Below, in pieces: positions 18,624 to 32,053 of a stretch of 64,000 nucleotides of DNA (position 1 is its first letter; the number at the start of each line of letters is the position of its first letter). The DNA comes from an uncultured archaeon (lineage in GTDB: Archaea > Iainarchaeota > Iainarchaeia > Iainarchaeales > GCA-2688035): the NCBI GenBank assembly GCA_964354805.1, contig CAYHBD010000010.1, positions 1 through 64,000 of the forward strand, in the 5' to 3' direction. A program made the position numbers and the translations under genes. Below the pieces are notes generated by a model. It was not told where the DNA came from and made no database searches. It saw only the letters and a program-made list of their open reading frames with translations.

Positions 18624-18690
18624 TTTCAACACGCCACTACGTAGGCGTGGTTGTGCCCGTTCGACCCAACAGGGCTTCTTCGAAGCCCTA

Positions 18691-18871
18691 TGCACGGGGG
18701 CGGGTTCGAACCGCCGAACGCACTAAGCGACAGGATTTCGCAAGCCCTCTCTTTGTTTTCTTTTTCCCAGGGCTTTTCTTGGCGAAGCCCTTTTTCTTTC
18801 CCAAGGCTTTCTTTTTTCAAAAAAGAAAGGCTTCTTGAGTCCTGCGGGTTTGACCGCTTCCCTACCCGTGC
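18691..18871 (-). tRNA. tRNA-Leu(CAA) with ~97-nt intron at 37/38 (18737-18833)
   Basis: Acceptor GCACGGG/CCCGTGC-A; anticodon stem CAGGA/TCCTG with CT-CAA-G; long variable arm; GGTTCGAACC T-loop; BHB-like junction with one mismatch. Confidence 0.9.
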
Positions 18872-18919
18872 ATTAAGATAATTTTAATAAGAAAAAGGAA
18901 TATTAAAAGCTTGCCCTTC

Positions 18920-19949: not shown

Positions 19950-19996
19950 CGGCTTTGCCGAAGCAAGTTTTATGCTCAATTTATTCTTTCTTTCCC

Positions 19997-20130
19997 CACA
20001 ATGTCAAGCATCAAAATATTTCTTTTTTGTTTCATTGCTTGGCATTGTGCCAAGGCTTTCTTTTCTAAAGAAAGGCTTGCCGAAGGCATTTTTTCCCAAG
20101 CCTTTTGCACCGTAGTGCAAAAGGCTTGCC
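19997..20130. repeat. MITE-like IR element plus REP-like units (inverted relative of the 7.04-7.35 kb cluster)
   Basis: CACAATGTCAAGCA...TGCTTGGCATTGTG (19997-20049), followed by the reverse complement of AAGCCTTTTGCACTACGGTGCAAAAGGCTTGGGAAAA. Confidence 0.75.
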
Positions 20131-20168
20131 GAAAGAATAAAATACAAGTTTAAACATAAAGTAAAGCA

Positions 20169-20615
20169 ATGAAAAAGGAAATTTTCTTAATTGTTTTTCT
20201 TTTTGGTGCTGTTGCTTTAAGCGGCTGCACTCAACCAGGGTCTGTTACTGTTTTCAAATACGTTTGCTTTGATGGCACGGTTGTGGAAAATCAATCTGAT
20301 TGCCCTGCATTGCCTGATGTGAATTGCGAGCTAAGCTGCCCTTGCTCATGCCCCACGCCTGTTTTGCCTGAGACAAGCCAGGAGGAATTCATTCAGGGCC
20401 AGATAGATAAAGCAAACTACTGCTCTGTAAAAGAGGACTGTGTTCTGGCTGAAAGCAAGTGCCCCTTCGGCTGCACTATTTTCGTCAACAAGAGCGAACT
20501 TGCCAGAATAAACAAAATAATCAGCGAATACAGGCAAGTATGCAATCTTTCCTGCACGCCCCTGAAATACTATAACTGCGATGAAAACAAGTGCGTTGAA
20601 ACAGACTGGGGTTAA
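20169..20615 (+). CDS. Cys-rich lipoprotein
   Basis: Lipobox ALSGC; many Cys (CFDG, CPFGC). Confidence 0.75.
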   Translation: MKKEIFLIVFLFGAVALSGCTQPGSVTVFKYVCFDGTVVENQSDCPALPDVNCELSCPCSCPTPVLPETSQEEFIQGQIDKANYCSVKEDCVLAESKCPFGCTIFVNKSELARINKIISEYRQVCNLSCTPLKYYNCDENKCVETDWG

Positions 20616-20671
20616 AGGGCTGGCAACTCGGGCGAAAGAATAAAATAGGGGTTTGGCGTATAATTAATTAG

Positions 20672-20860
20672 GTGAATGCTTTGTTTAGATTTTTCAGGAG
20701 AAGAAAACTAATTCCTGTCCCTGCTTCCGGCAACACTCCGGGTGACAGAAGAGTTAGACCACCGATAATGACCGGCGTTCATCCATCTGTGGGAAGGGTT
20801 TACTTTGACCGATTTCTTGAGTTGTGGAAGCCAAACAAAAGAAAATCAAAAGAGCAATAG
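20672..20860 (+). CDS. Small basic orphan protein
   Basis: 62 aa; FFRRRK at N-terminus; own promoter-like motif upstream. Confidence 0.4.
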   Translation: MNALFRFFRRRKLIPVPASGNTPGDRRVRPPIMTGVHPSVGRVYFDRFLELWKPNKRKSKEQ

Positions 20861-20898
20861 CTGGAATTTTGCCCGAATTATTCTTCCCCTTAATTTTT

Positions 20899-20909
20899 CG
20901 CAGGGGCTG
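20899..20909. repeat. att site (distal copy of tRNA-Ser 3' end)
   Basis: CGCAGGGGCTG equals 31781-31791. Confidence 0.85.
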
Positions 20910-21014
20910 TAAGGAAATGCTTACAGTTTAGTGCAGTTACCTTAGTGTAATATAATAACCATTCTTATTTAAATATATTCGCTTATTACCTTAATGTAAC
21001 ATTGAGGTGTTTTT

Positions 21015-21170
21015 GTGCCAAATCTACAGTTTTCAAAGGGCAGATGGAGCTTAACCATTCCTTTTGAAATGGTTGAATCAAAAGGCTGGCAGAAAGGCCA
21101 GCGCCTGCTATGCAATTTCAACGCCCAGGGCAACATTGAATTAAGCGAATTAAAGCCAAAAACAAAATAG
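21015..21170 (+). CDS. AbrB/MazE/SpoVT-like DNA-binding protein (51 aa)
   Basis: Manual translation MPNLQFSKGRWSLTIPFEMVESKGWQKGQRLLCNFNAQGNIEL...; GAGGTG RBS; not in the ORF track. Confidence 0.7.
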   Translation: MPNLQFSKGRWSLTIPFEMVESKGWQKGQRLLCNFNAQGNIELSELKPKTK

Positions 21171-21286
21171 GCCTGCTGCTCGTTTTCTGCCGTTGTAAAG
21201 CGCAGGTTTTTAAAGCTTTTTTTGAGGAAAAAGGTTTTTATAGTAGAAAAGCCTTTTTGTTACAAAACAAAGAAGGGAAAAAAAAG

Positions 21287-21733
21287 ATGCCTAAAGCACT
21301 GTTTTATATTGAGGGCAAAAACGTGCAGCATATTGGTTGCAGGCTAATTGTTACAAAACAATTAATCCACACTGGGCTCACTAAAGGCGGGGCATTCAAT
21401 TTGCCTGACGGCAGGGTTGAAATTGTTTTGGAAGGGAGCGAAGACCAATTAAAAAACGCCCACAACTATATTAAAGACAATTTGATTGAATGGATAAAGC
21501 AATCAGCAAACGAAAGGGAAGAACTAAAGCGATTGATTGGAAACCCAAAGCCTGATGTCAAAATCAGTGAATTAGAGTTTAACGATTCACTGCTTGTGCT
21601 TGACATTGGGTTATTCAGCCATTCATTAACCTTTGACCAAATATACAAGGGAATAGACGTTTACAAAGATTTAACAAAATCAATCCTGCTTCTTAATCAA
21701 ACACTAAAAAACAAAAACTCAGCCGGGAACTAA
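21287..21733 (+). CDS. Acylphosphatase-like protein with C-terminal extension
   Basis: GKNVQHIGCR (cf. GxVQGVGFR) and NLPDGRVEIVLEG. Confidence 0.75.
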   Translation: MPKALFYIEGKNVQHIGCRLIVTKQLIHTGLTKGGAFNLPDGRVEIVLEGSEDQLKNAHNYIKDNLIEWIKQSANEREELKRLIGNPKPDVKISELEFNDSLLVLDIGLFSHSLTFDQIYKGIDVYKDLTKSILLLNQTLKNKNSAGN

Positions 21734-22064
21734 AAGAAGGCACTATTATAGTGAAAAAAGAAAGAGTAGCCTTCCGCTGCTGGCACTGCTTTGAATAGCT
21801 GATTGTTTTTCCTTGCTTTGAAAGGAACTTGGCAATATCCCGAACAGAACCATTTTGGGGAGCAGAACCTTCTTTGCCCTTAACATGTTTGCCTGATTTA
21901 TAAGCACTGTAAAACTGTTTTACAGTGCCTGCTTTTGATTGCAGCCATGCTCTCGCTAAAACAATCGAGCCCTCTACATCGTGAAAGTCTGTGTCCCGCT
22001 GCTCCGGCAACAAATGCCTGCTGCTTGAATTTTATATAAAACTCTAAAAAAAGCAAAAGGAGGC

Positions 22065-22140
22065 GGGGCGGGAAAAAAAGAGAAAAAAACCCGCCCTGTT
22101 TTTTTTTCAAATAGCAGGCGTTGAAACGCCTGCTGCTTTT
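22065..22140. terminator. Paired GC-rich hairpins with T-tracts at the end of the element's minus-strand operon
   Basis: GGGCGGG...CCCGCCC followed by T-run; AGCAGGCGTT-GA-AACGCCTGCT (22113-22134). Confidence 0.45.
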
Positions 22141-22250
22141 TCTTTTTTTTCAAGCAATTGCTTTGTCTTTTCTATTTCTTCCATTTAAATGCACTGCTTG
22201 AAATAAGCCGGGAAAAAATTGAAACCCGTGTGGCGCATAACAAAACCCTT

Positions 22251-22616
22251 TCAGGCAATTTGTGTTTCAACCAGCTGCCTTGACCACATGAACAAAACCA
22301 AGACAACAACAAGGATTAAAATAATCCAGCCGAAAGAAAAAAAGAAGCCTACAACATCAAAGCTGGTGGCGAAGCTTTCCTGACTGGCTTGAACAACATC
22401 CTGCAGCTGTGCCTTTATGCCCGCATCCTCAATTGTTGAAAAGCTTTGCTCTGCATCAGCAATCAGCGACTGCCCTTGTGCCATGAATGAAATATTTATC
22501 AATTGGGTGAATGGCAAAAGCAGGGCAAACAAAAACAGCAGGAAAATGGAGAGCGAAACGAAAGCCATGAACAAGGAAACACTGCCCCTGCCGCCTAATT
22601 TTTTTATCTCAAACAT
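22251..22616 (-). CDS. Two-TM helical hairpin protein with prepilin-like N-terminus (candidate virion/pilin protein)
   Basis: KKLGGRG|SVSLF followed by a hydrophobic helix, amphipathic linker and second hydrophobic helix. Confidence 0.55.
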   Translation of the reverse strand: MFEIKKLGGRGSVSLFMAFVSLSIFLLFLFALLLPFTQLINISFMAQGQSLIADAEQSFSTIEDAGIKAQLQDVVQASQESFATSFDVVGFFFSFGWIILILVVVLVLFMWSRQLVETQIA

Positions 22617-22664
22617 TTGCCATCACACCAACACACATATTATGTGCCTTCCAATTAAAATTTT

Positions 22665-22892
22665 TTACGCTCCGATTTTTTTTTCAATTGCCACAATTTT
22701 TTCCAATGTAGTTTTTTTCATTTCACTCTCTGGCCATCGCTCAACTTGCGCTTTCAGCAAGCCCACTTCAATTTTCTGAAAGCCTGATATTGTTTTGCGC
22801 TCCTCGCTGCCCAGGTTCTTCTTCGCAGCTCGCTTTTGCAAGCGAACAAACTGATTAAGACAACTAAAAACGCTTTCAAAGTCCAAATACAT
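22665..22892 (-). CDS. Hypothetical protein (element)
   Basis: GGAGGTGG RBS before ATG at 22892. Confidence 0.55.
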   Translation of the reverse strand: MYLDFESVFSCLNQFVRLQKRAAKKNLGSEERKTISGFQKIEVGLLKAQVERWPESEMKKTTLEKIVAIEKKIGA

Positions 22893-22962
22893 CAAACCAC
22901 CTCCTTTTTCGTTCACTTTCCCGAGATAAACAATCTAAATTAAACACAACCCAACATATTCA

Positions 22963-23874
22963 TTACACTTTTAGCCGCCCTGTTGAAATCAGGGCATTTA
23001 ATGCTCGCTGCAAGTTCCTTGAAACAACTTCACCACAGGAGAAATGCGCTCTAATCAAACCCACGTCAGCATAAGGCTTTCCCCTTTTATCAATGCCCGT
23101 TAAGTCTTTAATCTGCCGAACGGCTTCCTCAAGCAATGGCTTGAAATCAATCTTTTCAATCGCCTTACCTTTCTCCCGCAGCAACTGCTCGTGCCACCTG
23201 GCAAGATTAACATCAATGTAATCAGCTTTCTTTTTCTCATAAGCGTCAACCAGCTCTTTTCTCGGCAGCGGAATAGATATTTTATCAATCCTTGAAACCT
23301 CGCCTTTCACATCCCTAACCCTGGGCTTTGGCATATACTGTTTCCCGCTCATAGCCGAAACAGTGCTCCAGTAAAACTGTGCAAAACTGCGCTTGCTGCG
23401 AAAATCAATGCTCTCAAACTTTGCAATGCCCGTTATGCCAACCTTGCGCACAACACTGTCAATTTGTGAAATCATGGGTGCACACATGAAAACAATAAAC
23501 CCTTTTGCCCTGTAGGTTGTAACTGTGAAATTCATCCGCTTGTTTTCCTTTGTCATCGCATTCCGGGCGCTCGCTGCCTTTTCGCTGCCAGCAATTTCAT
23601 CAAAAAGAATAACGCTGCCCCGCTTTAATTTTCCCTTTGAATCCCCGTTTCGCATAAGCCCAATAAAGTCTTCAACACTGAAAACAATGCGGTCGCTATT
23701 AAAGCCCGAATCCAAGTCTTGCCCAAAACGAATAGCTGCCGTGCTTTTGCCCGTGCCAGGCTTCCCAATAAACAAGAACGTGCAGTTTTGTTTTTGGCGA
23801 TAAATATCCCGCCAGACCTGGCGATAAATGAAATTTCTTTTGATTTTCAACGGCATTACCTGCGTCATACTCAT
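22963..23874 (-). CDS. P-loop ATPase (viral Zot/B251-like; candidate packaging or assembly ATPase)
   Basis: Walker A GKPGTGKS; Walker B VILFDE; YRAKG and IDSVVR segments; no TM helix. Confidence 0.75.
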   Translation of the reverse strand: MSMTQVMPLKIKRNFIYRQVWRDIYRQKQNCTFLFIGKPGTGKSTAAIRFGQDLDSGFNSDRIVFSVEDFIGLMRNGDSKGKLKRGSVILFDEIAGSEKAASARNAMTKENKRMNFTVTTYRAKGFIVFMCAPMISQIDSVVRKVGITGIAKFESIDFRSKRSFAQFYWSTVSAMSGKQYMPKPRVRDVKGEVSRIDKISIPLPRKELVDAYEKKKADYIDVNLARWHEQLLREKGKAIEKIDFKPLLEEAVRQIKDLTGIDKRGKPYADVGLIRAHFSCGEVVSRNLQRALNALISTGRLKV

Positions 23875-24344
23875 TCCTCAAAATCAAAGTTTTTGCTTTT
23901 CACCGGCATCAAATTTGCTGCTCCAAACTGGGAAATGAGCAAGTCTTGAAGCTCACTCAACAAATCAAGGTATTGGTCAACCCCGTCATTAAAAAAAAAC
24001 GTTTGCCCGTTTACCTGAACCTGTTCAAGCAGCCGCAGCCGTATTTTTGCCCCGTTTATTTCCAATACATATTTTTGGTGCATTTTTGTTTTCAGTTTTG
24101 CGGACTTTGTTTTGTAGTCTTCCGTTAAAAAAGAGTTCAGCATGCTCTCAATCGTTCTGATTGCAGAATAAGCTCCTCTTGCAACCGCAACCCGCCCGTC
24201 AAACGTTTTGCGCCTCGCTTGCGAAACAGAAACCAAAAAATTATAACGGTCAAGTTCCTGCAAAACCAAGTATTGCAGGTTTGTTCGTTCATTGCGAATG
24301 TCCTCCACATTCATGCTCGCCAGAAAGCCCGTTTCCTCACTCAT
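23871..24344 (-). CDS. Hypothetical protein (element)
   Basis: Start/stop overlaps with both neighbours. Confidence 0.65.
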   Translation of the reverse strand: MSEETGFLASMNVEDIRNERTNLQYLVLQELDRYNFLVSVSQARRKTFDGRVAVARGAYSAIRTIESMLNSFLTEDYKTKSAKLKTKMHQKYVLEINGAKIRLRLLEQVQVNGQTFFFNDGVDQYLDLLSELQDLLISQFGAANLMPVKSKNFDFEE

Positions 24345-24727
24345 TTAGTTTTCGCCTCCGCTTTTTCAATCAAGTCCGAAAAATCGCAGCCTTTTGGCTC
24401 GGACTTAAAAACCACTGCAAGCAACAGTTTGAGTTTAAAGTTTGCTGCCCGAACATTCCTAAATTTTTCCTCGCAATCTTGGTTTTGGCGAAAATCCAAA
24501 ACGGCCTGCTCAAAACCTTTTTCGTCAGGAATCAGGCCTCGGGCGAAAACAATAGCTTCAAGGTTGTCCACTGCTACGCTAAAATAAATCATGCCATCCT
24601 CAAACTTTCCGAGTTCTGCGCTTTTTGGCAAAATGTTCAACGCAGCCCACAAAGCCGCATCGGTGCATCGTTCCGCCAAATTCTTCCTGCTAAAACCTGA
24701 CCATTCGTTATCTTCCTGTTTTTTCAC
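24341..24727 (-). CDS. Hypothetical protein (element)
   Basis: GAGGTGA RBS; coupled to the downstream ORF. Confidence 0.65.
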   Translation of the reverse strand: MKKQEDNEWSGFSRKNLAERCTDAALWAALNILPKSAELGKFEDGMIYFSVAVDNLEAIVFARGLIPDEKGFEQAVLDFRQNQDCEEKFRNVRAANFKLKLLLAVVFKSEPKGCDFSDLIEKAEAKTK

Positions 24728-24732
24728 CTAAA

Positions 24733-24993
24733 TCACCTCATTGATTTTTTTTTATAAAAAAAAATTGGGCGCTTCATTACAACTCTCTGGCTTTCAAAAA
24801 AGTCACTACGCCAGCATTCAATCTTTGAAACAAAAAAACCCTGCGCCTGCAATTCCCGCAGCTCACTCTCGGTTTTAGGCACGGCCATCTCAAAGGCTGA
24901 CGGGTAAACCATCTGCGGCAGGCGGCGGGATGGAGTGAGCCGCCTGCCTTTTAACTTGGAGGTTTTTTTTCCACGAATTAAAATATGTTTCAT
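24733..24993 (-). CDS. Basic hypothetical protein (element)
   Basis: Start MKHILIRG at 24993 overlaps the upstream stop (ATGA); the longer ORF-track version is unlikely. Confidence 0.55.
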   Translation of the reverse strand: MKHILIRGKKTSKLKGRRLTPSRRLPQMVYPSAFEMAVPKTESELRELQAQGFFVSKIECWRSDFFESQRVVMKRPIFFYKKKSMR

Positions 24994-25169
24994 TTTGCAA
25001 CCCGCCCAGCAAATTTTCCATGTAAATAAAAAACATAAACCCCAAAAAGGAAAACAATTGCAAGCACAGCGAAAGCCAGCAGAATATTCAAAATGGAAAA
25101 AAGCAGGCCAATGCCACAGGCCGCAACAGCAAGCAGCAAGCAGGCAACAGCGAGCAAAAGTTTTTTCAT
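24990..25169 (-). CDS. Small hydrophobic protein (59 aa, two TM)
   Basis: Manual translation MKKLLLAVACLLLAVAACGIGLLFSILNILLAFAVLAIVFLFGVYVFYLHGKFAGRVAK; ATGA overlaps at both ends. Confidence 0.7.
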   Translation of the reverse strand: MKKLLLAVACLLLAVAACGIGLLFSILNILLAFAVLAIVFLFGVYVFYLHGKFAGRVAK

Positions 25170-25426
25170 TCAACCATCACCCACCACACGGTTGTAGAAT
25201 TTGAAACTTCAATTTTAACAAGTCCAGCGATACGCAATTCTTGCAAAGCAATTATTGTTTCGGTTTCCGAAAAACCGTTGTTTGGATTTCCATAAATCTC
25301 CCAAGCCAAAAAATGCTTATCGCTTGGTCGCGTTTCCGCTCTATTCCAATTCGGCATTTTCACGTTTTTGGCTTTTGGCAATTCAAGAATCTTTTTCAAC
25401 AAGAGTTGCTGTTGCATAGTGTTCAC
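25166..25426 (-). CDS. Small protein, possibly winged-helix
   Basis: C-terminal ALQELRIAGLVKIEV...VWWV resembles a wHTH recognition helix plus wing. Confidence 0.5.
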   Translation of the reverse strand: MNTMQQQLLLKKILELPKAKNVKMPNWNRAETRPSDKHFLAWEIYGNPNNGFSETETIIALQELRIAGLVKIEVSNSTTVWWVMVE

Positions 25427-25736
25427 CTTCCAAAAAACTTTGTTTTGACTCTAATTTTTGGCGTTTGGCTTCAAGCCAATTTTTTAGCTCGCTTTCCAAA
25501 CCCTGTAAGTATTCAGGGACTGCGGTCATGCGCCAAATTTCTTTTGCTGCCTCAAGGTCTTGTTCAAAAATTGTTTGGCGTTTTTGTTGCCTGGTGAGAA
25601 AAGCCGCGCACTTCAAAAACTGTTTCGTTTCCTTTTGCATTGCGCGGTCTAAAGCCAAGCGGGATTTGCCTGATATCCGAATGCCTAACTCTTTTATTAA
25701 CTCACTAACCGCTGCGCTTCGCAATAACTTGCTCAT
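25383..25736 (-). CDS. Histone-fold protein with C-terminal helical extension
   Basis: AAVSELIKELGIRISGKSRLAL...AAFLTRQQKRQTIFEQDLEAA aligns by eye with HMf-type RVS..A..AL...A..AGRKTIKAEDIELA. Confidence 0.8.
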   Translation of the reverse strand: MSKLLRSAAVSELIKELGIRISGKSRLALDRAMQKETKQFLKCAAFLTRQQKRQTIFEQDLEAAKEIWRMTAVPEYLQGLESELKNWLEAKRQKLESKQSFLEGEHYATATLVEKDS

Positions 25737-25942
25737 AAAAAAACCTCCTGAGATTCTATTACAATAGGCGCAATATCAGCCCTTTTTTTAAGCAAACCAA
25801 TGGATTGGAGCGCAAAATCAGCGCGCAATGTTGAAAAGAGGCAAAACCAAGCGCGCTGCCCTATAGCAAATGGCTTTTGAACACGTTCGAAAATGCGAAC
25901 CGGTTTTTTCTCATTGATTTTTGACTGCAAATCACTTTCCAT
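25733..25942 (-). CDS. Hypothetical protein (element)
   Basis: Overlaps neighbours; contains the GGAGGT RBS for the histone-fold gene. Confidence 0.5.
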   Translation of the reverse strand: MESDLQSKINEKKPVRIFERVQKPFAIGQRAWFCLFSTLRADFALQSIGLLKKRADIAPIVIESQEVFL

Positions 25943-26171
25943 TCAAAACACCAACCTGCTGCGTTTTTTTCAAAATATATCCTGTCGCATCAAAAGGGCT
26001 ATTTGGAATAAAGCAATGAGCGCACCGGTGCCCAAGCCCCCGGCCATGTTTGTGCAAACAATGGCAGAAATCGCACCAAAACTGCCAGCCGCCCAAAAAA
26101 TCCTGCCTGGGTTCAACCAAAACGATTGGAATGCCGTCTTTGTGGCCTAAAATAACAGTTTTTTCAGGCAT
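25932..26171 (-). CDS. Small Cys/His zinc-binding protein (phage-type)
   Basis: WCDFCHCLHKHG...GHRCAHC...SPF..TGYIL; start uncertain (26171 or 26237). Confidence 0.6.
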   Translation of the reverse strand: MPEKTVILGHKDGIPIVLVEPRQDFLGGWQFWCDFCHCLHKHGRGLGHRCAHCFIPNSPFDATGYILKKTQQVGVLNGK

Positions 26172-27756
26172 TTGCAACCACTCCCTCTCCGTTTTGTGTG
26201 GGCGGTCTGCCACTCTGGGCATTCTTACCCACGACATATTGCTCTGCCCTCTTTTTCTTCCGTTTTTTAGCCAAAACAGCCTGTTTTTCGATTGTTCCAA
26301 AATTTGTTACTCCCGATATGCGGTGCAATTCATGCAATTCATTTTCATTTGCATGATTTGCATTAATTGCATTATTTGTATCAACTGCATGAATTGCATT
26401 AATTTCTATTTCTTCCCATTTTGGTATTGAAAAAGTAAGAACATCTGGAAGGGGTATATAAATTGCGACATCTTTTTTGGATTCCTCAACATGGGTTTTG
26501 GTTTTTTCCAAAAAGCCAAGCTGAACCAATCGGTCAAGTGTATTTCGTAACCAGCGTTCTTCCCATCGAGAAAATCGTATATTTATGTTTTGTAGGGTTC
26601 CCCCATCTGGGAAGTATTTTATCAAAATTTCAATCAGTTCCTTTTCTTCTCTCGCAAGTGGAATCATCAAAGAATTGCTTGTTGTTTGCAATAAAGCAAT
26701 TCTTGCATTTCCATAATCTTCCGGAGTAGCAAGTATTTTTCCCTGCAAATCTTTTTGTCTTTGGTGTTGGTGCAAACAGGCGCTTCCTTTAATATAATCA
26801 AGGAAGCGGGAGAAAATTGTTCGTTGAATAACCTGGCAATTCCTTGATTTTTTTATCCAGTATTCAGCTAATGCGTGGGTTATTTTTTCTGCATATGGAA
26901 TAATCACTTCAATGAAATCAAGGCCGTAATAAAATCTTTTTGCCAATTCATTTTTTTCTTCTTGTTCTTGTCCTGCATCCTCACTCGCCTGTTTTAAATT
27001 TATTTGTAATGTTTGTTGTGAACTTTCATCCATGTACAAGAAAGGCAATCGCCTCAGTGCTTCATCTCCAGCTTTTACCTTTGCTGCGGTTGTGAGAAAT
27101 GTTGGTTTGCCTTTAATACTCAAATCTTTTGCTGCTCCCTCATGCACGATTGTAACTGTATTTATTTTGTTTGGGTTTGCGCTCATCAGAGTTTTGACTG
27201 ATTCGGAATTTAAAATTTTGCTGTTCACATCTTCGAGATAAACAAAATAGTTATTCCAATCTCGGTTCTGATGGCGAGCCAACGCATAATCCAACGCTTT
27301 TTCGCTTACTCTTCGCCTTGCAAAAATGTTTTCCTCAGGAAAAATATTAAGCGTTTCACTTACTACAAAATCTTTTCCTGTTCCTGGGGCAGCATTAGCA
27401 CAGAGGTTGCTACTTGTGCTTCTTTTATTTTTTACTTTTGCAAGACAACAAATAAGAATAATTGTTTTAATGGAATTTGTTTCGCCGACAACACTTTTTT
27501 GCACTTCGATTGTGAGGTTATTTAAAAGTTGTGGCTGGGATAAATATGCTATTAGTTCTGGGTTGGAGTCAATTTGTATTGCCTCTTCTTTTTTTCCTTG
27601 CATTTCACGTTCCAACTCAGCGAGTTCAACAACCTCTTTTTTTACTAAAACCATTGCAATTTTGTAATCAAGCTTTACAATACTACCTTTCGGTTGTTCT
27701 CCAGTGAGTTTAGTGTAATCTTCAAATTTCAAAATTTTGCACAGCACTTTGCTCAT
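26164..27756 (-). CDS. Helicase-like AAA+ ATPase (SF3/MCM-related) with C-terminal wHTH
   Basis: VVGE, Walker A APGTGKD, Walker B VYLED, ALRR; directly downstream of the primase. Confidence 0.75.
   Translation of the reverse strand: MSKVLCKILKFEDYTKLTGEQPKGSIVKLDYKIAMVLVKKEVVELAELEREMQGKKEEAIQIDSNPELIAYLSQPQLLNNLTIEVQKSVVGETNSIKTIILICCLAKVKNKRSTSSNLCANAAPGTGKDFVVSETLNIFPEENIFARRRVSEKALDYALARHQNRDWNNYFVYLEDVNSKILNSESVKTLMSANPNKINTVTIVHEGAAKDLSIKGKPTFLTTAAKVKAGDEALRRLPFLYMDESSQQTLQINLKQASEDAGQEQEEKNELAKRFYYGLDFIEVIIPYAEKITHALAEYWIKKSRNCQVIQRTIFSRFLDYIKGSACLHQHQRQKDLQGKILATPEDYGNARIALLQTTSNSLMIPLAREEKELIEILIKYFPDGGTLQNINIRFSRWEERWLRNTLDRLVQLGFLEKTKTHVEESKKDVAIYIPLPDVLTFSIPKWEEIEINAIHAVDTNNAINANHANENELHELHRISGVTNFGTIEKQAVLAKKRKKKRAEQYVVGKNAQSGRPPTQNGEGVVANA
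26324..26403. repeat. Degenerate 9-bp tandem repeat (TGCAT-T/G-AAT-like), about 9 units
   Basis: TGCAATTCA TGCAATTCA ... TGCATGATT TGCATTAAT TGCATTATT TGTATCAAC TGCATGAAT TGCATTAAT. Confidence 0.7.
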
Positions 27757-28604
27757 TTTCTCGCCTCCAGCAAACACAAATCACAAATAGAGCGCTTTCC
27801 AATCGAGCCAGCAAATTTCTGAATCTGCTTGCAATTAAATTCCGGCTTATACTGGCCCCAACACTTCAACCGAGCAACTGTTAAGTTTTCTTGTTGCTGG
27901 GTTTCAACAAGCTTTTGCAGCAAAGTTTCATTGCCTCTAAAATATGCAAAGGCGTTGGGAGAAAAGCGGCTATTCTGTTGTTTGTTGTTTAAATCAATTT
28001 TGTTGTTTAAGCCGTATTCAAAAAAAGGGCAGTGTTTTTGATTATCTATTCTCCCTGAGGGAGTCTTATACATAAATTTTTTTTCGTTCTCTTTTTTTAC
28101 CGCTTCAACAATTTCCTGCGGCAAAACATTCGTTCCCTTTGCTTCTCGAATCAGTATTTTTAACCTGCCTGTTTTGCGATGTGGTGTTCCTGCAATATGC
28201 CACATCCGTTTGTTTCCAAAGTTTGCCTCATCGAAACTTTTGGAAAGTTCTTCATTCGTCAGCCATAGTGTCAGTGCTTTTTTTACCATTGGGCGAATCT
28301 CTGGCTCAATTAATTCAAGCCCCTGCCATTCCATTTCAAGATGGAAGCTTTTATTTCCGCCATCATAATATTGGTATGCAATACCTTTCATATCGAGCAG
28401 CGAGCAAACAAAATTCATGACCTGTTTGTTTGTTTCTTTTTGTTCAAAATCTGTTTCAAGGCAAAGTTGTTCTGGCCTGATTAATTCGTAATTTGGTTCA
28501 CTTTTCATTTCTTTTTTCCATTGTTCAGGCGTTCTCCACTTGCTCCACCCATCTTTGTATTTTTTTAGGTTGCCTTCAGCAACAAGGTAAAGAAATTCAC
28601 TCAT
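27753..28604 (-). CDS. Archaeo-eukaryotic primase (AEP) with C-terminal PriL-like Cys cluster
   Basis: Motif I LETD, motif II GGNKSFH, motif III D..RMWHIAGTPHRKTG; C-terminal HCPF...FNC...ICDLC. Confidence 0.75.
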   Translation of the reverse strand: MSEFLYLVAEGNLKKYKDGWSKWRTPEQWKKEMKSEPNYELIRPEQLCLETDFEQKETNKQVMNFVCSLLDMKGIAYQYYDGGNKSFHLEMEWQGLELIEPEIRPMVKKALTLWLTNEELSKSFDEANFGNKRMWHIAGTPHRKTGRLKILIREAKGTNVLPQEIVEAVKKENEKKFMYKTPSGRIDNQKHCPFFEYGLNNKIDLNNKQQNSRFSPNAFAYFRGNETLLQKLVETQQQENLTVARLKCWGQYKPEFNCKQIQKFAGSIGKRSICDLCLLEARK

Positions 28605-28701
28605 CAAAATTCCCCCGGCAAACTTCGCATTCCCCGCATAATTCGGGCATAAAAAGGCAAAAGCGAGGACACCAAATAGCACGAAAAATTTTAAGGCTCA
28701 T
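28597..28701 (-). CDS. Tiny Cys-rich ORF (34 aa)
   Basis: MSLKIFRAIWCPRFCLFMPELCGECEVCRGNFDE; GGAGG RBS; fills the operon gap. Confidence 0.4.
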   Translation of the reverse strand: MSLKIFRAIWCPRFCLFMPELCGECEVCRGNFDE

Positions 28702-28873
28702 GTCTGCTTCCTCCATTTTTGTTTTCAATCGCAGACAGCCTGCTGGCTACATCCATTAACCTTTCTTCAGCCTGTCGCAGCCTGGAGTTTAAGGCTTCAA
28801 TTTCTTCCTGCTGTCGTTCAAAAGAGCGGGCAGGGTGGCTGGTGCAAAAGCCTGTGTTGAGGCTGCTACGCAT
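28691..28873 (-). CDS. Small coiled-coil protein
   Basis: Heptad-like IEALNSRLRQAEERLMDVASRLSAIE. Confidence 0.5.
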   Translation of the reverse strand: MRSSLNTGFCTSHPARSFERQQEEIEALNSRLRQAEERLMDVASRLSAIENKNGGSRHEP

Positions 28874-29054
28874 GAGGCAACACCTCAACTTTTTGAATCA
28901 GGGAAAAAGCAAAAACTTGGGGCAATCCAAACTTATCAATCATGCCGAGCTTATCATCCGTAACAGAAATTATTTTGCCTGAATACACCCTCTGTTGTCC
29001 GCAATCAAAAACAACAACCTTGCAAAATTTTCCAAGAAAAAGTTTCCAATCCAT
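28866..29054 (-). CDS. Sm/LSm-like small beta-barrel protein
   Basis: FLGKFCKVVV...YSGKIISV...LGMID...FSLIQKVE; GGTGAGG RBS (alternative start 29120). Confidence 0.6.
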   Translation of the reverse strand: MDWKLFLGKFCKVVVFDCGQQRVYSGKIISVTDDKLGMIDKFGLPQVFAFSLIQKVEVLPHA

Positions 29055-29116
29055 TTCCTCACCTTTTTTATTTTTTTTCTCGCCTTCGCAGCTCGGCGCA
29101 AACCGCTTGAAAAAAT

Positions 29117-29254
29117 TCATTCGGCATTTTTTTCAGCCTCCAGCGCAGAATGGAGCAGATGCAGCAGCAAGGCCGTGCGTGTGTTGAATTGTTGTTTTTT
29201 TGCGTCAATGCGCCCAAGTAATTCAGCTGGGCAGTTGAATTGAACCAAAGGCAT
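29117..29254 (-). CDS. Ribbon-helix-helix (CopG-like) protein, 45 aa
   Basis: Manual translation MPLVQFNCPAELLGRIDAKKQQFNTRTALLLHLLHSALEAEKNAE; AGGTGA RBS; first gene of the operon. Confidence 0.65.
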   Translation of the reverse strand: MPLVQFNCPAELLGRIDAKKQQFNTRTALLLHLLHSALEAEKNAE

Positions 29255-29414
29255 TATTTTGTCACCTGAATGTAATGGTGCGGTTGGAATTTATAAATGT
29301 TTTTCTTTTTTTTACTACTTTTTTTTGTGGTAGGTATTGCTTTTTCTACTACTAAAATAAGGTTTTAATGGGAAAGCCATAGTTTTATAAAGAGAAACCC
29401 CTATTATTTGTAGT

Positions 29415-30401
29415 ATGCCTACTACTGAAAGAAAAGAGCTGGAAGACCTTGCAAATTGCTTGGGAACACCAAAAACAAGCAGGGTTTTGCAGTTAATTGA
29501 GCTTTCAAACAATGGGCTGCTGATGCAAGACCTCTTTTCCCTGCTTAACGCACCAAAAGACAAGGGCACCCAGGATGCTTTAAAATTGCTGCAAGAAAGT
29601 GGTCTTATTGAAAAGCGAAAAGGCACAAACGTAAAAACAATCAGGGCAACATGGCAGCAAGAGCGCAACAAACTGCCTGCGCTGATCGAAATAAATATTG
29701 ATGCAGGCCTGCGTTTTGGCTCGAGGTTTTTTTGCAAGCAAAACCCGGTTGCGCTTTTCTTTGAAAAAATAATAAACAAAAATGGGTTGAGCAAAGAACA
29801 GCAAGCGCTTTCTCCTTGCCTTGATGCAATTGGAAAAGAGATTGCGGCGAGATGGGAATGGCAAAAGCTGGCTGTTGATTTTAACACAGAACTACTGCCT
29901 GCTTTTGCTCAAAACTTTGAAAGCATTGGCAAAGAATTGGGAAATGCGTCTTTAAACAAAATATTAATAGCTAAAAAGGGCGCTGCAGAAGGTTTGGAAA
30001 TGCTTAATCAAAAAACGATTGAGGTAATGGAAGAAATGAAGAAGGAAAAAAAAGCAGGCCGTTTGGCTTTTGTTGCAAGCCTGAAAGAAGAAAAAACGCT
30101 TTCCACACATTTGGATTATGTTTCACATATGCTGCAGCGCTTGCTTGTTGAAGAATTTATTCAGCACTACACCCGCTTTTATGAGTATGTTGCAAAAGAG
30201 CAAGCGCCGGCAATTGATTTGGATAAAATAAATTTTATTGTTTCCCTGCTGCAAGAGGTTGAATCACGCCTTTCAAAAAACGCCCTTGTTTTTGAGATTG
30301 TTTCCCGCTTGCAAAACTTCAACAACCTTTTAAGCGTTGCAATGGAGCAAAGGAAAACAATGGTGCTTTTGGAAAATAAGAAAGTGGCAGAAGGCAATTA
30401 G
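29415..30401 (+). CDS. Winged-helix (ArsR-like N-terminus) regulator with helical C-terminal domain
   Basis: LGTPKTSRVLQLI...ALKLLQESGLIEKRK; divergent from the RHH gene. Confidence 0.6.
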   Translation: MPTTERKELEDLANCLGTPKTSRVLQLIELSNNGLLMQDLFSLLNAPKDKGTQDALKLLQESGLIEKRKGTNVKTIRATWQQERNKLPALIEINIDAGLRFGSRFFCKQNPVALFFEKIINKNGLSKEQQALSPCLDAIGKEIAARWEWQKLAVDFNTELLPAFAQNFESIGKELGNASLNKILIAKKGAAEGLEMLNQKTIEVMEEMKKEKKAGRLAFVASLKEEKTLSTHLDYVSHMLQRLLVEEFIQHYTRFYEYVAKEQAPAIDLDKINFIVSLLQEVESRLSKNALVFEIVSRLQNFNNLLSVAMEQRKTMVLLENKKVAEGN

Positions 30402-31699
30402 CCGTTTTCTGCCAGTATTTTTTTATTCATCCCCGTTTTCTGCGCCATTTTTACCATGAATCCCAAAACTTCTTTTTGCATTGCCGGGTTTTTGAATGCC
30501 AATTGCATTGTTTCAATCAGCAGGTTGTTTTCTTTGCTTTCTTTTGCCAGCACGTTGTCCAATCCGAGTGTTGCTCCGCATTGCTCGCAAAATCCATTGC
30601 TTTCTGTGCTGCTGCAAATCGGGCATTCTTTTGGCATCATGCAATTGCCTGCGTTCAGTTCAAAGTATGGCTTCTCAAAGTCCACCGGCTTTATATGCGT
30701 ATAATTCAGGCTAATCCTTTTGCTTTTGCTCCACCCAAACCAAGCATACTTTATATCCTCGCCCCAGCCGCTGCATCTGCTGGCCATCATGTGCCTGAAA
30801 ACGCTGGTTGCCTTTCTTTCAGGCAATTCAACGCCGCCTGCTGCAAAGGCTCGCAGAACCAGCTGTCGTGCAGCAACATAGCTTAGCCTGTTGCCAAAGC
30901 GGTCAGGGAACAATGGTGCTTCTTGGTTATCGTGTTGGTAATTCTGCAGCCATTTTGTAATGTATGGCTTGCAGAGATAGCCGATAACCGTTCTCGGTTT
31001 GGTTTTTGAAACAGGAAAGTGCAGCAGCAGATAGTTTTTTCCCTCTGCCTGCTTTATGTCGCTTACGTTCATGCCAACTGCTTCGGTTATTCGGCATCCA
31101 GCATCATTCATAATTGAAAGCAGTGCCTGGTTGCGGAAATAGAGCGGGCTGTTTGCCCTGACCAGCTTTGATGCCCTTATTGTTTGCCCTTCTCTTTGTG
31201 CCTTGCTTACCAATGCGTGTTTTTCTATTATGCCCTTAATCTGTTCCTGTGTGGGCAGTTCAATTAAATCTTCTACATCAGGCCGCTTGGGCATCTCAAT
31301 GTTGTCAATTGCCTCAGGGTATTTGCCCTTTTTCATGTTGAAATGGTATCGCAAAAACTTTTTTGTCAGCCAAAAGTATTTCTCTACGCTGCCCCAGCTT
31401 AATGAACCTTTATCCATTCTGTCAAGCATGGAATTGAACCAAGCTTCGTTATCTGCTGCTGTTATGGCTTCAACGTTTTGCTTGTTGTGCCACAGCAGGT
31501 AATGATAGCTCACATCCAAGTCTTTGCATTGGGTGTTAATTCTTGCACCCTTGTCTTTTGCGTTGTATCTCACAAGAGCTTGCTTGCATTCTTCGCTCAA
31601 TTCGCTGTCCTGAATTTTTTGCAGCAGGCCTGCTGTTTCTTTTCGCCTATTATGAATATCAATCTCTTCTTTACCATTTGAATTAGGCTTCGCAGCCAT
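30398..31699 (-). CDS. int: Tyrosine recombinase/integrase with C-terminal zinc ribbon
   Basis: GCRITEA (R), SKTK (K), SVFRH (HxxR with S for H), FGWS, NYTH (Y); CPIC...FCEQCG; adjacent to tRNA-Ser att. Confidence 0.9.
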   Translation of the reverse strand: MAAKPNSNGKEEIDIHNRRKETAGLLQKIQDSELSEECKQALVRYNAKDKGARINTQCKDLDVSYHYLLWHNKQNVEAITAADNEAWFNSMLDRMDKGSLSWGSVEKYFWLTKKFLRYHFNMKKGKYPEAIDNIEMPKRPDVEDLIELPTQEQIKGIIEKHALVSKAQREGQTIRASKLVRANSPLYFRNQALLSIMNDAGCRITEAVGMNVSDIKQAEGKNYLLLHFPVSKTKPRTVIGYLCKPYITKWLQNYQHDNQEAPLFPDRFGNRLSYVAARQLVLRAFAAGGVELPERKATSVFRHMMASRCSGWGEDIKYAWFGWSKSKRISLNYTHIKPVDFEKPYFELNAGNCMMPKECPICSSTESNGFCEQCGATLGLDNVLAKESKENNLLIETMQLAFKNPAMQKEVLGFMVKMAQKTGMNKKILAENG

Positions 31700-31780
31700 T
31701 CGCAATCACCTCACTTTAGGGCTGCATTACTACACCGCAACCCTTAAAAAAGGCAACTGCGAATGAACTGCGAACACTGA

Positions 31781-31996
31781 CGCAGGGGCTGGGATTTGAA
31801 CCCAGGCTCCCTTTCGAGAACGAGCTCGCCGCAATTTTCGCTTGAAAAAGAAACCAATTTTCTTTTACTGAATCTTTTCTTTTTCAAAAAGAAAAGGCTT
31901 GTTTTGCAAAGCAAAACCCCTTTTCCCCAGGCTTTTTTGCGGAAGCAAAAAAGGCTGTTAGCAGGCTCGCGCGTTAAACCACTCCGCCACCCCTGC
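31781..31996 (-). tRNA. tRNA-Ser(GCT) with ~132-nt intron at 37/38 (31827-31958)
   Basis: Acceptor GCAGGGG/CCCCTGC-G; anticodon stem CGAGC/GCTCG with CT-GCT-A; long variable arm; GTTCAAAT T-loop; central helix CUGC/GCGG. Confidence 0.9.
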
Positions 31997-32053
31997 AGCT
32001 AGAAAATATTAACGGTGAAAACAATTAAAATTCATCGGTTGCAAAGTTTCTTT

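Follow-up and report, generated by a model that had tools for sequence, protein, structure and literature searches.

A site-specifically integrated ~10.9-kb mobile element with a spindle-virus-type AAA+ ATPase and a histone-fold protein in an Iainarchaeota (DPANN) archaeon

What kind of genetic entity occupies the ~10.9 kb between two copies of the sequence CGCAGGGGCTG in this tiny archaeon, a member of a little-studied host group? In the window, the whole stretch of 64,000 nucleotides that was analysed, the sequence is present at 20899 and 31781 only, and it corresponds to the part of a tRNA-Ser(GCT) gene that runs from the end of the T-stem through the acceptor 3' strand to the discriminator base; an integrase gene adjoins this tRNA gene.

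20899-20909, plus strand: left att core, direct repeat CGCAGGGGCTG (exact 11-mer match)
31781-31791, plus strand: right att core, identical to the tRNA 3' end
31779-31997, minus strand: tRNA-Ser(GCT), the integration target, interrupted by a 132-nt intron (intron-aware ARAGORN)
30398-31705, minus strand: tyrosine integrase, gene whole in the integrated state (PF00589, 3.7e-9, passing the curated cut-off; phrog_1 and phrog_216, 'integrase')

Due to the intron, the tRNA is missed by ARAGORN at default settings and by Rfam, while intron-aware ARAGORN, the 11-mer search and the PF00589 match established that the att repeat and the integrase described in the earlier note are real. The core is short (11 bp), and with many queries, 10-12-nt matches to the ends of tRNAs turn up often; the repeat might therefore flank ordinary host genes by chance. 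As a control, 11-mers from the last 25 nt of the 35 testable tRNAs in the host genome were searched for recurrence 3-30 kb downstream. Recurrence was observed for three tRNAs, two of which represent a generic T-loop motif, probably that of other tRNA genes, while the third is tRNA-Ser(GCT); no comparable recurrence was thus found for the 34 other tRNAs. Moreover, three relatives (G012, G016 and G009) have kept the order IMPDH, tRNA-Leu, tRNA-Ser, FtsZ, with an orthologous tRNA-Ser at the matching locus, and carry 0.4-1.4 kb in place of the ~12 kb in this genome, with none of the element's proteins found at that locus. The genes in question are patchily distributed, and the same genes occur on circular relatives. 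The empty sites and the circular relatives effectively refute a chance repeat around host genes, an explanation we consider scarcely credible, and the locus holds a mobile element, integrated site-specifically and still intact, in line with the earlier proposal of an integrated element. Across the left junction, an independent Logan contig from another run (L062) is 100% identical; no conservation of the left flank (19950-20898) was seen in relatives, which leaves the repeat as the only marker of the left boundary.

Upon integration the SSV1 integrase gene is split, whereas that of the element is not. Archaeal elements that integrate into tRNA genes and keep the integrase gene whole are reportedly the pNOB8 type in the classification of She and colleagues. 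The element shares with these the intact integrase gene beside a tRNA 3' end and the direct repeats duplicating the tRNA end, but differs in its very short core, in the 132-nt intron of its target and in cargo genes that are unrelated to conjugative plasmids.

The element consists of three parts, which are a replication module, a divergent singleton histone, and a conserved module in which orf128 and orf157 accompany an AAA+ ATPase and a two-TM protein. Its minus-strand genes are joined by start/stop overlaps of the ATGA type, seven in number and 4 nt each, in agreement with the translationally coupled operon of the earlier note, and the gene order listed there, including the 59-aa ORF at 24990-25169, stands with one addition, a 69-aa ORF between the Zn-finger and histone genes. 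The replication genes and their neighbours are as follows.

29415-30401, plus strand: divergently transcribed gene for a 328-aa protein, wHTH by eye and putatively regulatory (no family match)
29117-29254, minus strand: 45-aa RHH-like protein whose gene opens the operon (phrog_4738, 'transcriptional repressor', 0.0025)
28866-29120, minus strand: 84-aa protein, earlier called Sm-like (putative)
28691-28888, minus strand: small coiled-coil protein (DUF7310 at 0.0027, below cut-off; homolog in relative L019)
27753-28604, minus strand: AEP-type primase with a 4-Cys C-terminal domain (phrog_16345 'primase' at 4e-6)
26164-27756, minus strand: P-loop Rep/helicase-like protein, Pfam PF27228 (MTBMA_p00010_2nd)
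25932-26171, minus strand: Cys/His-rich small protein, Zn-finger-like by eye from its translation (no family match)
25733-25942, minus strand: orf69, overlapping the start of the histone gene by 4 nt (no family match)
25166-25417, minus strand: 83-aa ORF, wHTH-like by eye (no family match)

In the primase, residues E50, D52, K85, S86, D125 and H142 and the four cysteines are invariant; the Rep/helicase retains G127-K128-D129 and E175-D176, and all of its ten homologs among 5.8 billion proteins belong to PF27228. Of the proteins named from the sequence in the earlier note, the AEP primase, the P-loop Rep/helicase, the histone fold and the AAA+ ATPase were recovered by the tools, which did not bear out the Sm-like, RHH, wHTH and Zn-finger assignments. 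For the Sm-like protein, Pfam, PHROG, NCBIfam and the host ORFs returned no match, leaving RimP at E=0.59 only. A divergent wHTH-like gene adjoins the integrase in the related elements as well. Relatives are found as circles of 9.7-12 kb; L020 is circular by a 30-bp terminal overlap and in L018 the primase gene is divided between the contig ends, and each of the two encodes primase, Rep, ATPase and integrase. Within the order, the ATPase is present in 18 of 196 genomes and the PF27228 Rep in 8 of 196, some copies of the latter with in-frame stops. No close relatives were found in IMG/VR, among INPHARED phages or in PLSDB.

The third part of the element and the genes around it lie on the minus strand.

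24990-25169, minus strand: tm59, a very hydrophobic 59-aa protein in which two hydrophobic segments are accompanied by a basic tail (hydropathy scan; ATGA overlap with the stop codon of the preceding gene)
24733-24993, minus strand: highly basic 86-aa protein (frame reading; overlaps the upstream gene by 4 nt; no family match)
24341-24727, minus strand: orf128, conserved module member (tblastn to a 126-aa protein of L051-53 at 1e-5)
23871-24344, minus strand: orf157, conserved ATPase partner (44% identity in L025, 34% in L026/L027)
22963-23874, minus strand: AAA+ ATPase of the SSV1 B251/His1 ORF16/LSV-48N family
22665-22916, minus strand: orf83, with an 83-aa ORF at the same position in L025 (no NCBIfam match)
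22251-22616, minus strand: tm121, protein with two TM segments and a K/R-G|S leader, candidate membrane or virion protein

The ATPase family comprises 1,883 representative clusters, and its profile reaches LSV-48N (1.2e-72), His1 ORF16 (5e-14) and SSV1 B251 (2.8e-11), each as the sole match in its genome; LSV-48N was also reached by tblastn with the element's ATPase (7e-17). Membership in the spindle-virus AAA+ family is thus supported by sequence comparison, bearing out the virus-like character that had been ascribed to the protein. The gene set around the ATPase recurs as well. Relative L025 has counterparts of orf157, the ATPase, tm121 and a small ORF, while its helicase differs from that of the element. 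Although tblastn with orf128 gave no direct match in L025, a 135-aa protein in the corresponding position matches the 126-aa protein of L051 at 4e-10. In every case (L025, L026/L027) orf157 lies directly upstream of the ATPase. The larger relative L051-53 combines the family ATPase (3e-21), the orf128-like protein and a tm121 homolog of 61% identity with multi-TM proteins and adhesin-like giants bearing signal peptides. The tm121 homolog of L025 is 37% identical; with that of L051-53 the C-terminal TM is identical and under purifying selection. A fold search with the tm121 model (three helices, pLDDT 69) gave no significant match, and its TM-linker-TM-tail architecture is that of SSV1 VP3 and His1 VP21.

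The function of B251-type ATPases, which are annotated as 'DnaA-like', is unsettled. A serious rival reading is that the element is an integrative plasmid lacking an extracellular stage, in which the ATPase would act in partition, in helicase loading or in the initiation of replication in a DnaA/DnaC-like manner and the small membrane proteins serve maintenance or transfer by cell contact or vesicles. The PHROG labels of the ATPase (DnaA-like, DnaC-like, clamp loader; phrog_5484 matches 41 of 50 family members) are in line with such a role, as is the Rep family name, which, judging from the locus tag, derives from a Methanothermobacter plasmid gene. Furthermore, the element lacks a canonical MCP and an adhesin, and B251-type ATPases are a core gene of PL6-family plasmids (Zhou et al., 10.1101/2025.02.15.638363). 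However, the ATPase always accompanies orf157, orf128 and hydrophobic proteins rather than replication genes, its module moves between different replicons, and in L051 the operon that it leads encodes membrane proteins and secreted giants. A dedicated primase and Rep are already present in the element, and the annotated records with ATPase homologs, from a search outside the plasmid collection, are all spindle- or lemon-shaped viruses. We consider the plasmid explanation less likely than a virus-related one, but a serious one nonetheless.

We lean towards a temperate element related to spindle viruses, either an autonomous minimal virus or a satellite resembling pSSVx or SRCEs. Integration proceeded by recombination, through the integrase, of the 11-bp core in which tRNA-Ser(GCT) ends; the integrase gene was kept whole and the element supplies the tRNA with its new 3' end; after excision, the circle would be replicated by its own AEP primase and P-loop Rep/helicase. 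Orf128, orf157, the ATPase, tm121, the 59-aa hydrophobic protein and the basic protein would most likely act in packaging and release, in particles based on membrane or hairpin proteins. A satellite might borrow adhesins and capsid from a larger relative, although no L051-like helper provirus was found in this 88%-complete genome. The earlier proposal of a small virus or satellite is partly supported, by the mobile nature of the element, by its circular relatives, by the spindle-virus ATPase and by the lack of close relatives in the virus, phage and plasmid sets; virions are a putative feature, as a canonical hairpin capsid protein is not detectable in the element and an adhesin is missing. 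Capsid and other structural, terminase, portal and relaxase families gave no matches in the Pfam/PHROG scans of all ORFs other than the 59-aa, 83-aa (orf83) and ~89-aa ones. No large adhesin or spike gene was found in the element, and the canonical hairpin MCP profile, whose top matches are relatives L019 and L045, matched none of its ORFs.

With SSV1 (Fuselloviridae), His1 (Halspiviridae) and Haloferax LSV-48N (PP151251) the element has the homologous ATPase in common, and in LSV-48N the product of the gene after the ATPase likewise has one TM segment at the N-terminus and another at the C-terminus. A temperate lifestyle with a tyrosine integrase, for the element as read from its genes, and small hydrophobic proteins together with a basic protein are further likenesses. 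Sharing at the sequence level is limited to the ATPase; the replication genes differ, and the element has neither a match to a VP1/VP21-type MCP nor a large tail or adhesin protein. The spindle-virus signature consists of this ATPase and a hydrophobic helical MCP (10.1101/2025.02.15.638363). Small elements pairing the ATPase and/or the MCP with plasmid-type primase-helicases, one DPANN lineage included, have been described (Zhou et al., 10.1101/2025.02.15.638363), so that the 'undescribed family' of the earlier note was overstated. Like SRCEs, the element has a small genome, a DPANN host, a plasmid-type AEP primase-helicase and an incomplete spindle-virus morphogenetic module with the AAA+ ATPase. 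In contrast, its host is an iainarchaeon rather than a member of the Nanohaloarchaeota or Halobacteria, it measures 10.9 kb compared to 2.7-9 kb, it encodes a PF27228-type Rep and a histone, tm121 and tm59 stand in place of a detectable canonical hairpin MCP, and no helper has been identified. Its integration into a tRNA gene and the integrase that it encodes may be a further difference from SRCEs.

The histone-fold protein sets this copy apart.

25383-25736, minus strand: hist117, histone-fold protein with a C-terminal helix of ~45 aa (PF00125 at 2.2e-5)

It scores 25.2 bits against PF00125 (cut-off 26.4), and its best PDB matches, HMfA and HMfB, cover the entire fold. The predicted model comprises helices at 3-17, 23-70 and 76-115, and the predicted homodimer, with handshake contacts, scored 0.75 compared to 0.00 for the best control. 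Coiled-coil (CC) histones occur in Iainarchaeota and other DPANN phyla, bridge DNA in vitro and mostly have strongly acidic tails (Schwab et al. 2024, PMC11390915). As in CC histones such as HMfC, the fold is followed by a long C-terminal helix; hist117 differs in lacking strongly acidic tails, in residing on a mobile element and in having no detectable sequence relative, the protein being absent from all related elements. Judged by its architecture, hist117 fits DNA bridging better than nucleosomal wrapping (PMC11390915), and it is probably a DNA-bridging or compacting dimer or tetramer private to this copy. Neither its distribution nor its architecture favours the suggestion that it chromatinises the element's genome; that it packages this genome is speculative.

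Finally, the left end carries three further ORFs.

21015-21170, plus strand: 51-aa ORF, possibly AbrB/SpoVT-like by eye (no Pfam/PHROG match)
21257-21733, plus strand: acylphosphatase-like gene, probable ATG at 21287 (PF00708 at 2.2e-6, above cut-off)
21693-21959, minus strand: small conserved ORF of ~89 aa (59% identity to a 63-aa protein in the matching relative position of L025)

A host-like cargo gene, decayed Rep copies in relatives and the observation of the integrated form alone, the second run included, could indicate a stranded or domesticated island, formerly mobile and now fixed, with genes decaying or co-opted. Such a history appears improbable, as all 20-odd ORFs are whole with no in-frame stops, the seven start/stop overlaps are kept, integrase and both att cores are intact, and the tRNA is predicted to be functional. 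The acylphosphatase-like gene, whose homolog with 65% identity is located among core host-looking genes in relative G035, probably represents host-derived cargo of the element.

The stretch at 20899-31791 is a spindle-virus-related element integrated at a tRNA gene of an archaeon of the Iainarchaeota (Diapherotrites, DPANN); it combines a plasmid-type replicon with an orphan histone and with membrane proteins of a non-canonical set. The earlier note had described an integrated element with an exact 11-bp repeat at the 3' end of a tRNA-Ser gene, and this observation as a whole was confirmed by the tRNA, the repeat, the integrase and the empty sites in relatives. Neither ARAGORN at default settings nor Rfam reported a tRNA in the window, because the tRNA-Ser gene is interrupted by a 132-nt intron; reading of the sequence revealed class II tRNA halves with a long insert between them (31770-32010, minus strand), and ARAGORN with introns allowed placed a tRNA-Ser(GCT) at c[31779,31997] and a tRNA-Leu(CAA) with an 87-nt intron at 18690-18872. 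The 11-mer CGCAGGGGCTG, the final 11 nt of tRNA-Ser(GCT), occurs in the window at two sites only (20899 and 31781, same strand), and no alternative repeat was found between 19900 and 22400. As a control for chance, all 11-mers from the last 25 nt of the 35 testable tRNAs of the genome were sought 3-30 kb downstream, which yielded three recurrences only, one being the att repeat of the element and the other two a generic T-loop motif, probably in other tRNA genes. The proposed integrase was likewise recovered, as a tyrosine integrase of 435 aa which adjoins the tRNA-Ser and matches PF00589 above its cut-off (3.7e-9) as well as phrog_1 and phrog_216; its gene is intact beside the att site and the direct repeats duplicate the tRNA 3' end, as is characteristic of tRNA-integrating elements. 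The genome (1.38 Mb in 49 contigs, ~88% complete) holds a single copy.

Among the 40 relatives searched, the flanking IMP dehydrogenase, tRNA-Leu, tRNA-Ser and FtsZ genes are kept and element DNA is almost absent. Empty sites, which the earlier note had proposed to look for, are provided by three syntenic genomes: in G012 the homolog of the 19431-19949 gene and the 3' end of tRNA-Ser are 424 bp apart, and in G016 and G009 the left-flank genes are separated from the tRNA-Ser by 1.3-1.4 kb, so that gaps of 0.4-1.4 kb match ~12 kb in the element-bearing genome. When all proteins of the element were compared with these three sites by tblastn, none was found there. The left junction is spanned by L062, a Logan contig of another run with 100% identity to 20648-23658, and is therefore not an assembly artefact. 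Relatives also lack the segment 19950-20898, which contains a repeat and a lipoprotein-like gene, and the exact position of the left edge is thus defined solely by the 11-bp repeat. The genomes G008 and G004 have 7.5-kb gaps at the same tRNA-Ser, which were ruled out as further copies by their unrelated gene content.

The gene order read in the earlier note, including tm59 and the basic 86-aa protein as separate ORFs, is correct, and neighbouring genes overlap by 4 nt in seven cases.

Genes of the element, with the basis of each assignment
30398-31705, minus strand: integrase (PF00589)
29415-30401, plus strand: 328-aa putative regulator, orf328 (no family match)
29117-29254, minus strand: RHH-like protein, 45 aa (phrog_4738, 0.0025)
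28866-29120, minus strand: 84-aa 'Sm-like' protein (no family match; RimP E=0.59)
28691-28888, minus strand: coiled-coil protein, 65 aa (DUF7310, 0.0027)
27753-28604, minus strand: AEP primase (phrog_16345, 4e-6; E-x-D, K-S-x-H, D, H and four Cys conserved)
26164-27756, minus strand: P-loop Rep/helicase, 530 aa (PF27228)
25932-26171, minus strand: Cys/His-rich protein (by eye)
25733-25942, minus strand: orf69 (no family match)
25383-25736, minus strand: histone-fold protein, hist117 (PF00125, PDB sequence matches, homodimer prediction)
25166-25417, minus strand: wHTH-like protein, 83 aa (by eye)
24990-25169, minus strand: tm59, very hydrophobic (reading of frame)
24733-24993, minus strand: basic 86-aa protein (reading of frame)
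24341-24727, minus strand: orf128 (homolog comparison)
23871-24344, minus strand: orf157 (homolog comparison)
22963-23874, minus strand: AAA+ ATPase (family profile)
22665-22916, minus strand: orf83 (position common to L025, a related element)
22251-22616, minus strand: tm121, two TM segments (homologs in the related loci L025 and L051-53)
21693-21959, minus strand: small conserved ORF (L025 homolog)
21257-21733, plus strand: acylphosphatase-like protein (PF00708, 2.2e-6)
21015-21170, plus strand: AbrB-like by eye, 51 aa (no family match)

Ten small or unknown proteins had no NCBIfam match. For the 84-aa protein, neither Pfam, PHROG nor NCBIfam returned any match, RimP at E=0.59 being all that was found elsewhere, and no similarity to any host ORF was detected; the Sm-like assignment thus stands as a suggestion made by eye. 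A similar small protein is found in the same position of the related contig L020. The acylphosphatase-like gene looks like host-derived cargo, with a 65%-identical homolog in G035 whose neighbours are, by eye, an RNase P subunit and the proteasome alpha subunit.

Replication of the element is likely to be of plasmid type. The AEP primase named in the earlier note holds up, as catalytic motifs I-III are kept (E50-x-D52, K85-S86-x-H, D125 and H142 are invariant in five homologs) and phrog_16345 is itself annotated 'primase'; the best matches of its profile among PDB sequences, 7nqf and 7nqd, are marginal (E~0.5), and the profile of the Rep gave no more than a marginal PDB sequence match. Only ten homologs of the Rep were found among 5.8 billion proteins, all belonging to PF27228 ('MTBMA_p00010_2nd') and one labelled Candidatus Diapherotrites. 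Their contigs have the same primase upstream, and all but the Diapherotrites MAG contig L022 carry an integrase. One of these contigs, L020 (Logan SRR31540289; 9,719 bp, GC 33%), encodes the primase, the PF27228 Rep, an ATPase of the element's family and an integrase, and its ends overlap by 30 bp. This is k-1 for an assembler at k=31, as we presume Logan to be, and L020 was therefore read as circular; it is apparently a complete circular genome and would serve as the reference of this element family. In L018 (12,051 bp) the primase gene is split across the contig ends, and this contig is thus circularly permuted. A search of the circular relatives for attP with host tRNA 3' ends gave chance-level matches of 10-15 nt only.

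Within the order, the Rep was detected in 8 of 196 genomes, several copies having in-frame stops. Two such homologs, G015:C76:9792-11174 and G133:C120:1434-2795, contain 2-3 in-frame stop codons and are decaying copies from related elements in relatives. Single-protein scans of IMG/VR with the Rep and the ATPase found nothing, profile scans recovered distant homologs only, on contigs of 42-81 kb, and a plasmid collection returned only weak Rep matches to bacterial primase fusions. The contigs with distant homologs include one head-tailed virus, which encodes a terminase and a portal as well as a Rep homolog. The Rep is therefore a replication protein of mobile elements in general, and membership of its family does not tell plasmids from viruses.

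By sequence profile, the ATPase of the element is a member of the family of SSV1 B251 and His1 ORF16. A 50-member profile of this family, which comprises 1,883 representative clusters mostly of 280-300 aa, matched exactly one ORF each in the spindle- or lemon-shaped viruses LSV-48N (CDS0023, 1.2e-72), His1 (ORF16, 5.1e-14) and SSV1 (B251, 2.8e-11), and the Walker A and B residues G37, G40, G42, K43 and S44 and D92 and E93 are (nearly) invariant in alignments A1 and A2. The best PDB match of the profile was 2r2a (7.9e-5), which we take to be the N-terminal domain of Zot, and phrog_5484 ('DnaA-like') matched 41 of the 50 members (best 4.5e-16). In tblastn searches against annotated phages the only record retrieved with the ATPase was that of LSV-48N, a lemon-shaped virus of Haloferax (27% identity over 94%, 7e-17), and tm121 retrieved none. 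LSV-48N has been described as founding a new family (PMC12714723); it has the ATPase alone in common with the element. Its gene after the ATPase also encodes a protein with an N-terminal and a C-terminal TM segment, like tm121. The ATPase is present in 18/196 genomes of the order and 5/22 of the family, beside different tRNAs.

Several related loci share more than the ATPase. The 8.3-kb L025 has an integrase, as the element does, and homologs of the primase (35% identity), orf157 (44%), the ATPase (42%), tm121 (37%, 8e-23) and the small conserved ORF (59%), together with an orf128-like protein in matching position and a helicase unrelated to the Rep of the element; L026 and L027 have orf157 and the ATPase in common with it. 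The closest homolog of tm121 (61% identity) is found in L051-53, which encode an integrase, an AEP-TOTE primase, a family ATPase (3e-21), an orf128-like protein and tm121 next to proteins of 172, 527 and 280 aa, three multi-TM proteins and signal-peptide proteins of 1034, 911 and 682 aa, the last with a laminin-G domain. The final 26 residues of tm121 (22251-22616), comprising the C-terminal TM helix and tail, are identical to those of the L051 homolog (L051:8501-8863) in proteins otherwise 50-60% identical. Eight of the codons differ synonymously, which rules out recent DNA exchange and indicates purifying selection; the conserved end of the protein is suggestive of an interaction surface under strong constraint. 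In the ESM Atlas, tm121 and orf157 stayed below counting level. The orf128-orf157-ATPase-tm121 module hence occurs in elements of 8-11 kb and in one much larger, adhesin-bearing element, making it a candidate helper/satellite pair or non-canonical capsid system.

A profile of known major capsid proteins (MCPs; SSV1 VP1 and VP3 and His1 VP21), weak as it holds three sequences, was run against 1,698 ORFs of all fetched elements and had no match at E<=1 in the element. Its top ranks were taken by hairpins of two relatives, L045:11842-12033 (63 aa, E=0.016) and L019:10140-10388 (82 aa, E=0.03), with two hydrophobic helices and L-x-P-L (L-I-P-L) at the start of helix 2, and some Iainarchaeota elements are probably true spindle-type viruses. 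The tm121 profile had no match among known MCPs, and Foldseek found none for its model in the PDB at E<=0.001. The likeness of tm121 and tm59 to VP3 and VP21 is limited to the TM-linker-TM-tail architecture; tm121 also has a conserved K/R-G|S leader. The element contains neither a large adhesin or terminal-fibre protein nor any large signal-peptide protein, its largest ORFs being the Rep (530 aa), the integrase (435 aa) and orf328; the larger relatives L051, L018 and L019 carry proteins of 765-1034 aa. No L051-like helper provirus was found in the 88%-complete genome. Matches on host contig C42 were ruled out as such a provirus since they are giant surface proteins of the host. These secreted proteins (C42:699-23912, up to 3,472 aa) are 33-42% identical to the large signal-peptide proteins of L051, which suggests that adhesin domains are exchanged between host and mobile elements.

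We find in the element a plasmid-type replicon (AEP primase and Rep) joined to the family ATPase, with no detectable MCP or adhesin, a combination of the kind seen in pSSVx/SRCE-like virus satellites. Zhou et al. (bioRxiv 10.1101/2025.02.15.638363) described a spindle virus genome of 9.0 kb together with SRCEs, circles of 2.7-9 kb with RCR Reps or AEP primase-helicases and one or both of the signature genes of spindle viruses, for this ATPase and a hydrophobic helical MCP, which were proposed to be pSSVx-like satellites. With its plasmid-type replicon and partial spindle-virus module the element fits this class. Thus, of the virus or satellite family envisaged in the earlier note, the integrated element with a spindle-virus ATPase stands and the epithet 'undescribed' is overstated, so that this interpretation is supported in part. 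The data are compatible both with a minimal virus that is autonomous and with a satellite that depends on a helper. An integrative plasmid is also plausible, and the same study reports the spindle-virus ATPase as a core gene of PL6-family plasmids (Zhou et al., 10.1101/2025.02.15.638363). We consider it unlikely that the element represents a new minimal temperate virus or satellite family of Iainarchaeota whose particles would be built from tm121, as a non-canonical two-TM protein with prepilin-like processing, together with the ATPase, and of which this member would condense its own DNA by a private, highly divergent histone of the coiled-coil type; if true, it would be the first small archaeal virus-like element known with a histone.

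The histone fold proposed for hist117 is borne out by an HMf signature, by sequence matches to HMfA and HMfB and by a predicted handshake dimer. PF00125 was matched at 2.2e-5 (25.2 bits, just under the cut-off of 26.4), and the best PDB sequence matches, HMfA and HMfB, cover the whole fold (residues 8-68); an R is present in L1, and R-Q-T...D is aligned to R-K-T...D of HMf (R-x-T-x4-D signature). In the single-sequence model (pLDDT 74), alpha1 is followed by one long helix for alpha2-3 and by a C-terminal helix at 76-115; in Foldseek this model had no PDB match at E<=0.001, and its weak top matches are mostly histone-fold proteins. A homodimer was predicted at 0.75, compared with 0.00 for the best control, with runs agreeing in at least 75% of contacts and a partner pLDDT of at least 69, a mark that 21 of 30 solved homomers reached, compared with none of 23 single chains. 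The predicted contacts (L1-L2, alpha2-alpha2) follow the handshake pattern. Histone dimers are well known, and the result therefore indicates likeness rather than proof of binding. A canonical histone is encoded by the host itself (C29:37116-37340), and hist117 matches it at E=0.047 only. Neither a word-indexed search of 5.8 billion proteins nor six-frame searches covering 196 genomes of the order revealed a relative of hist117, and no related element has a histone. Schwab et al. (2024; PMC11390915) described tetrameric coiled-coil histones in Iainarchaeota, with a histone fold and a long C-terminal helix, of which HMfC bridges DNA, as well as histones of phages and additional ones carried by haloarchaeal plasmids. 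Judged by its model, hist117 would share the coiled-coil architecture, with the C-terminal helix predicted at 76-115. It is best regarded as a private accessory gene that probably acts in DNA bridging or compaction, and it might be speculated that it packages the element's own DNA. Such an orphan histone borne by a mobile element offers a tractable case for histone-fold diversification and for movement of histones between cells and parasites.

To our knowledge, there is no cultured virus-host system for Iainarchaeota, and the element and its circular relatives L020, L018 and L025 provide concrete genomes of a mobile-element lineage of this phylum. The pairing of a spindle-virus ATPase with a plasmid replicon, recently recognised in haloarchaea and nanohaloarchaea, is hereby extended to another DPANN branch.

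Our analysis also touched on the tRNA genes themselves. Introns of tRNA-Leu(CAA) and tRNA-Ser(GCT) measure 103-149 nt among relatives (loci L012, L013, L015 and L016), G004 is without both and G012 without that of tRNA-Leu; intron presence is thus polymorphic among orthologous tRNAs. Copies of a ~100-bp repeat situated just left of the element (19968-20088) occur on contigs C16, C9 and C8 of this genome and in relatives, and a 28-nt piece of the repeat (20051-20078) is 96% identical to the tRNA-Ser intron of G012 and G008. It seems to be a mobile repeat that spreads into intergenic DNA and into the introns of tRNAs. At C42:83948-84039, ARAGORN in permissive intron mode also predicted a 'tRNA-Stop' that has the anticodon TTA and an intron of 17 nt; this could be either a suppressor-like tRNA or an erroneous prediction.
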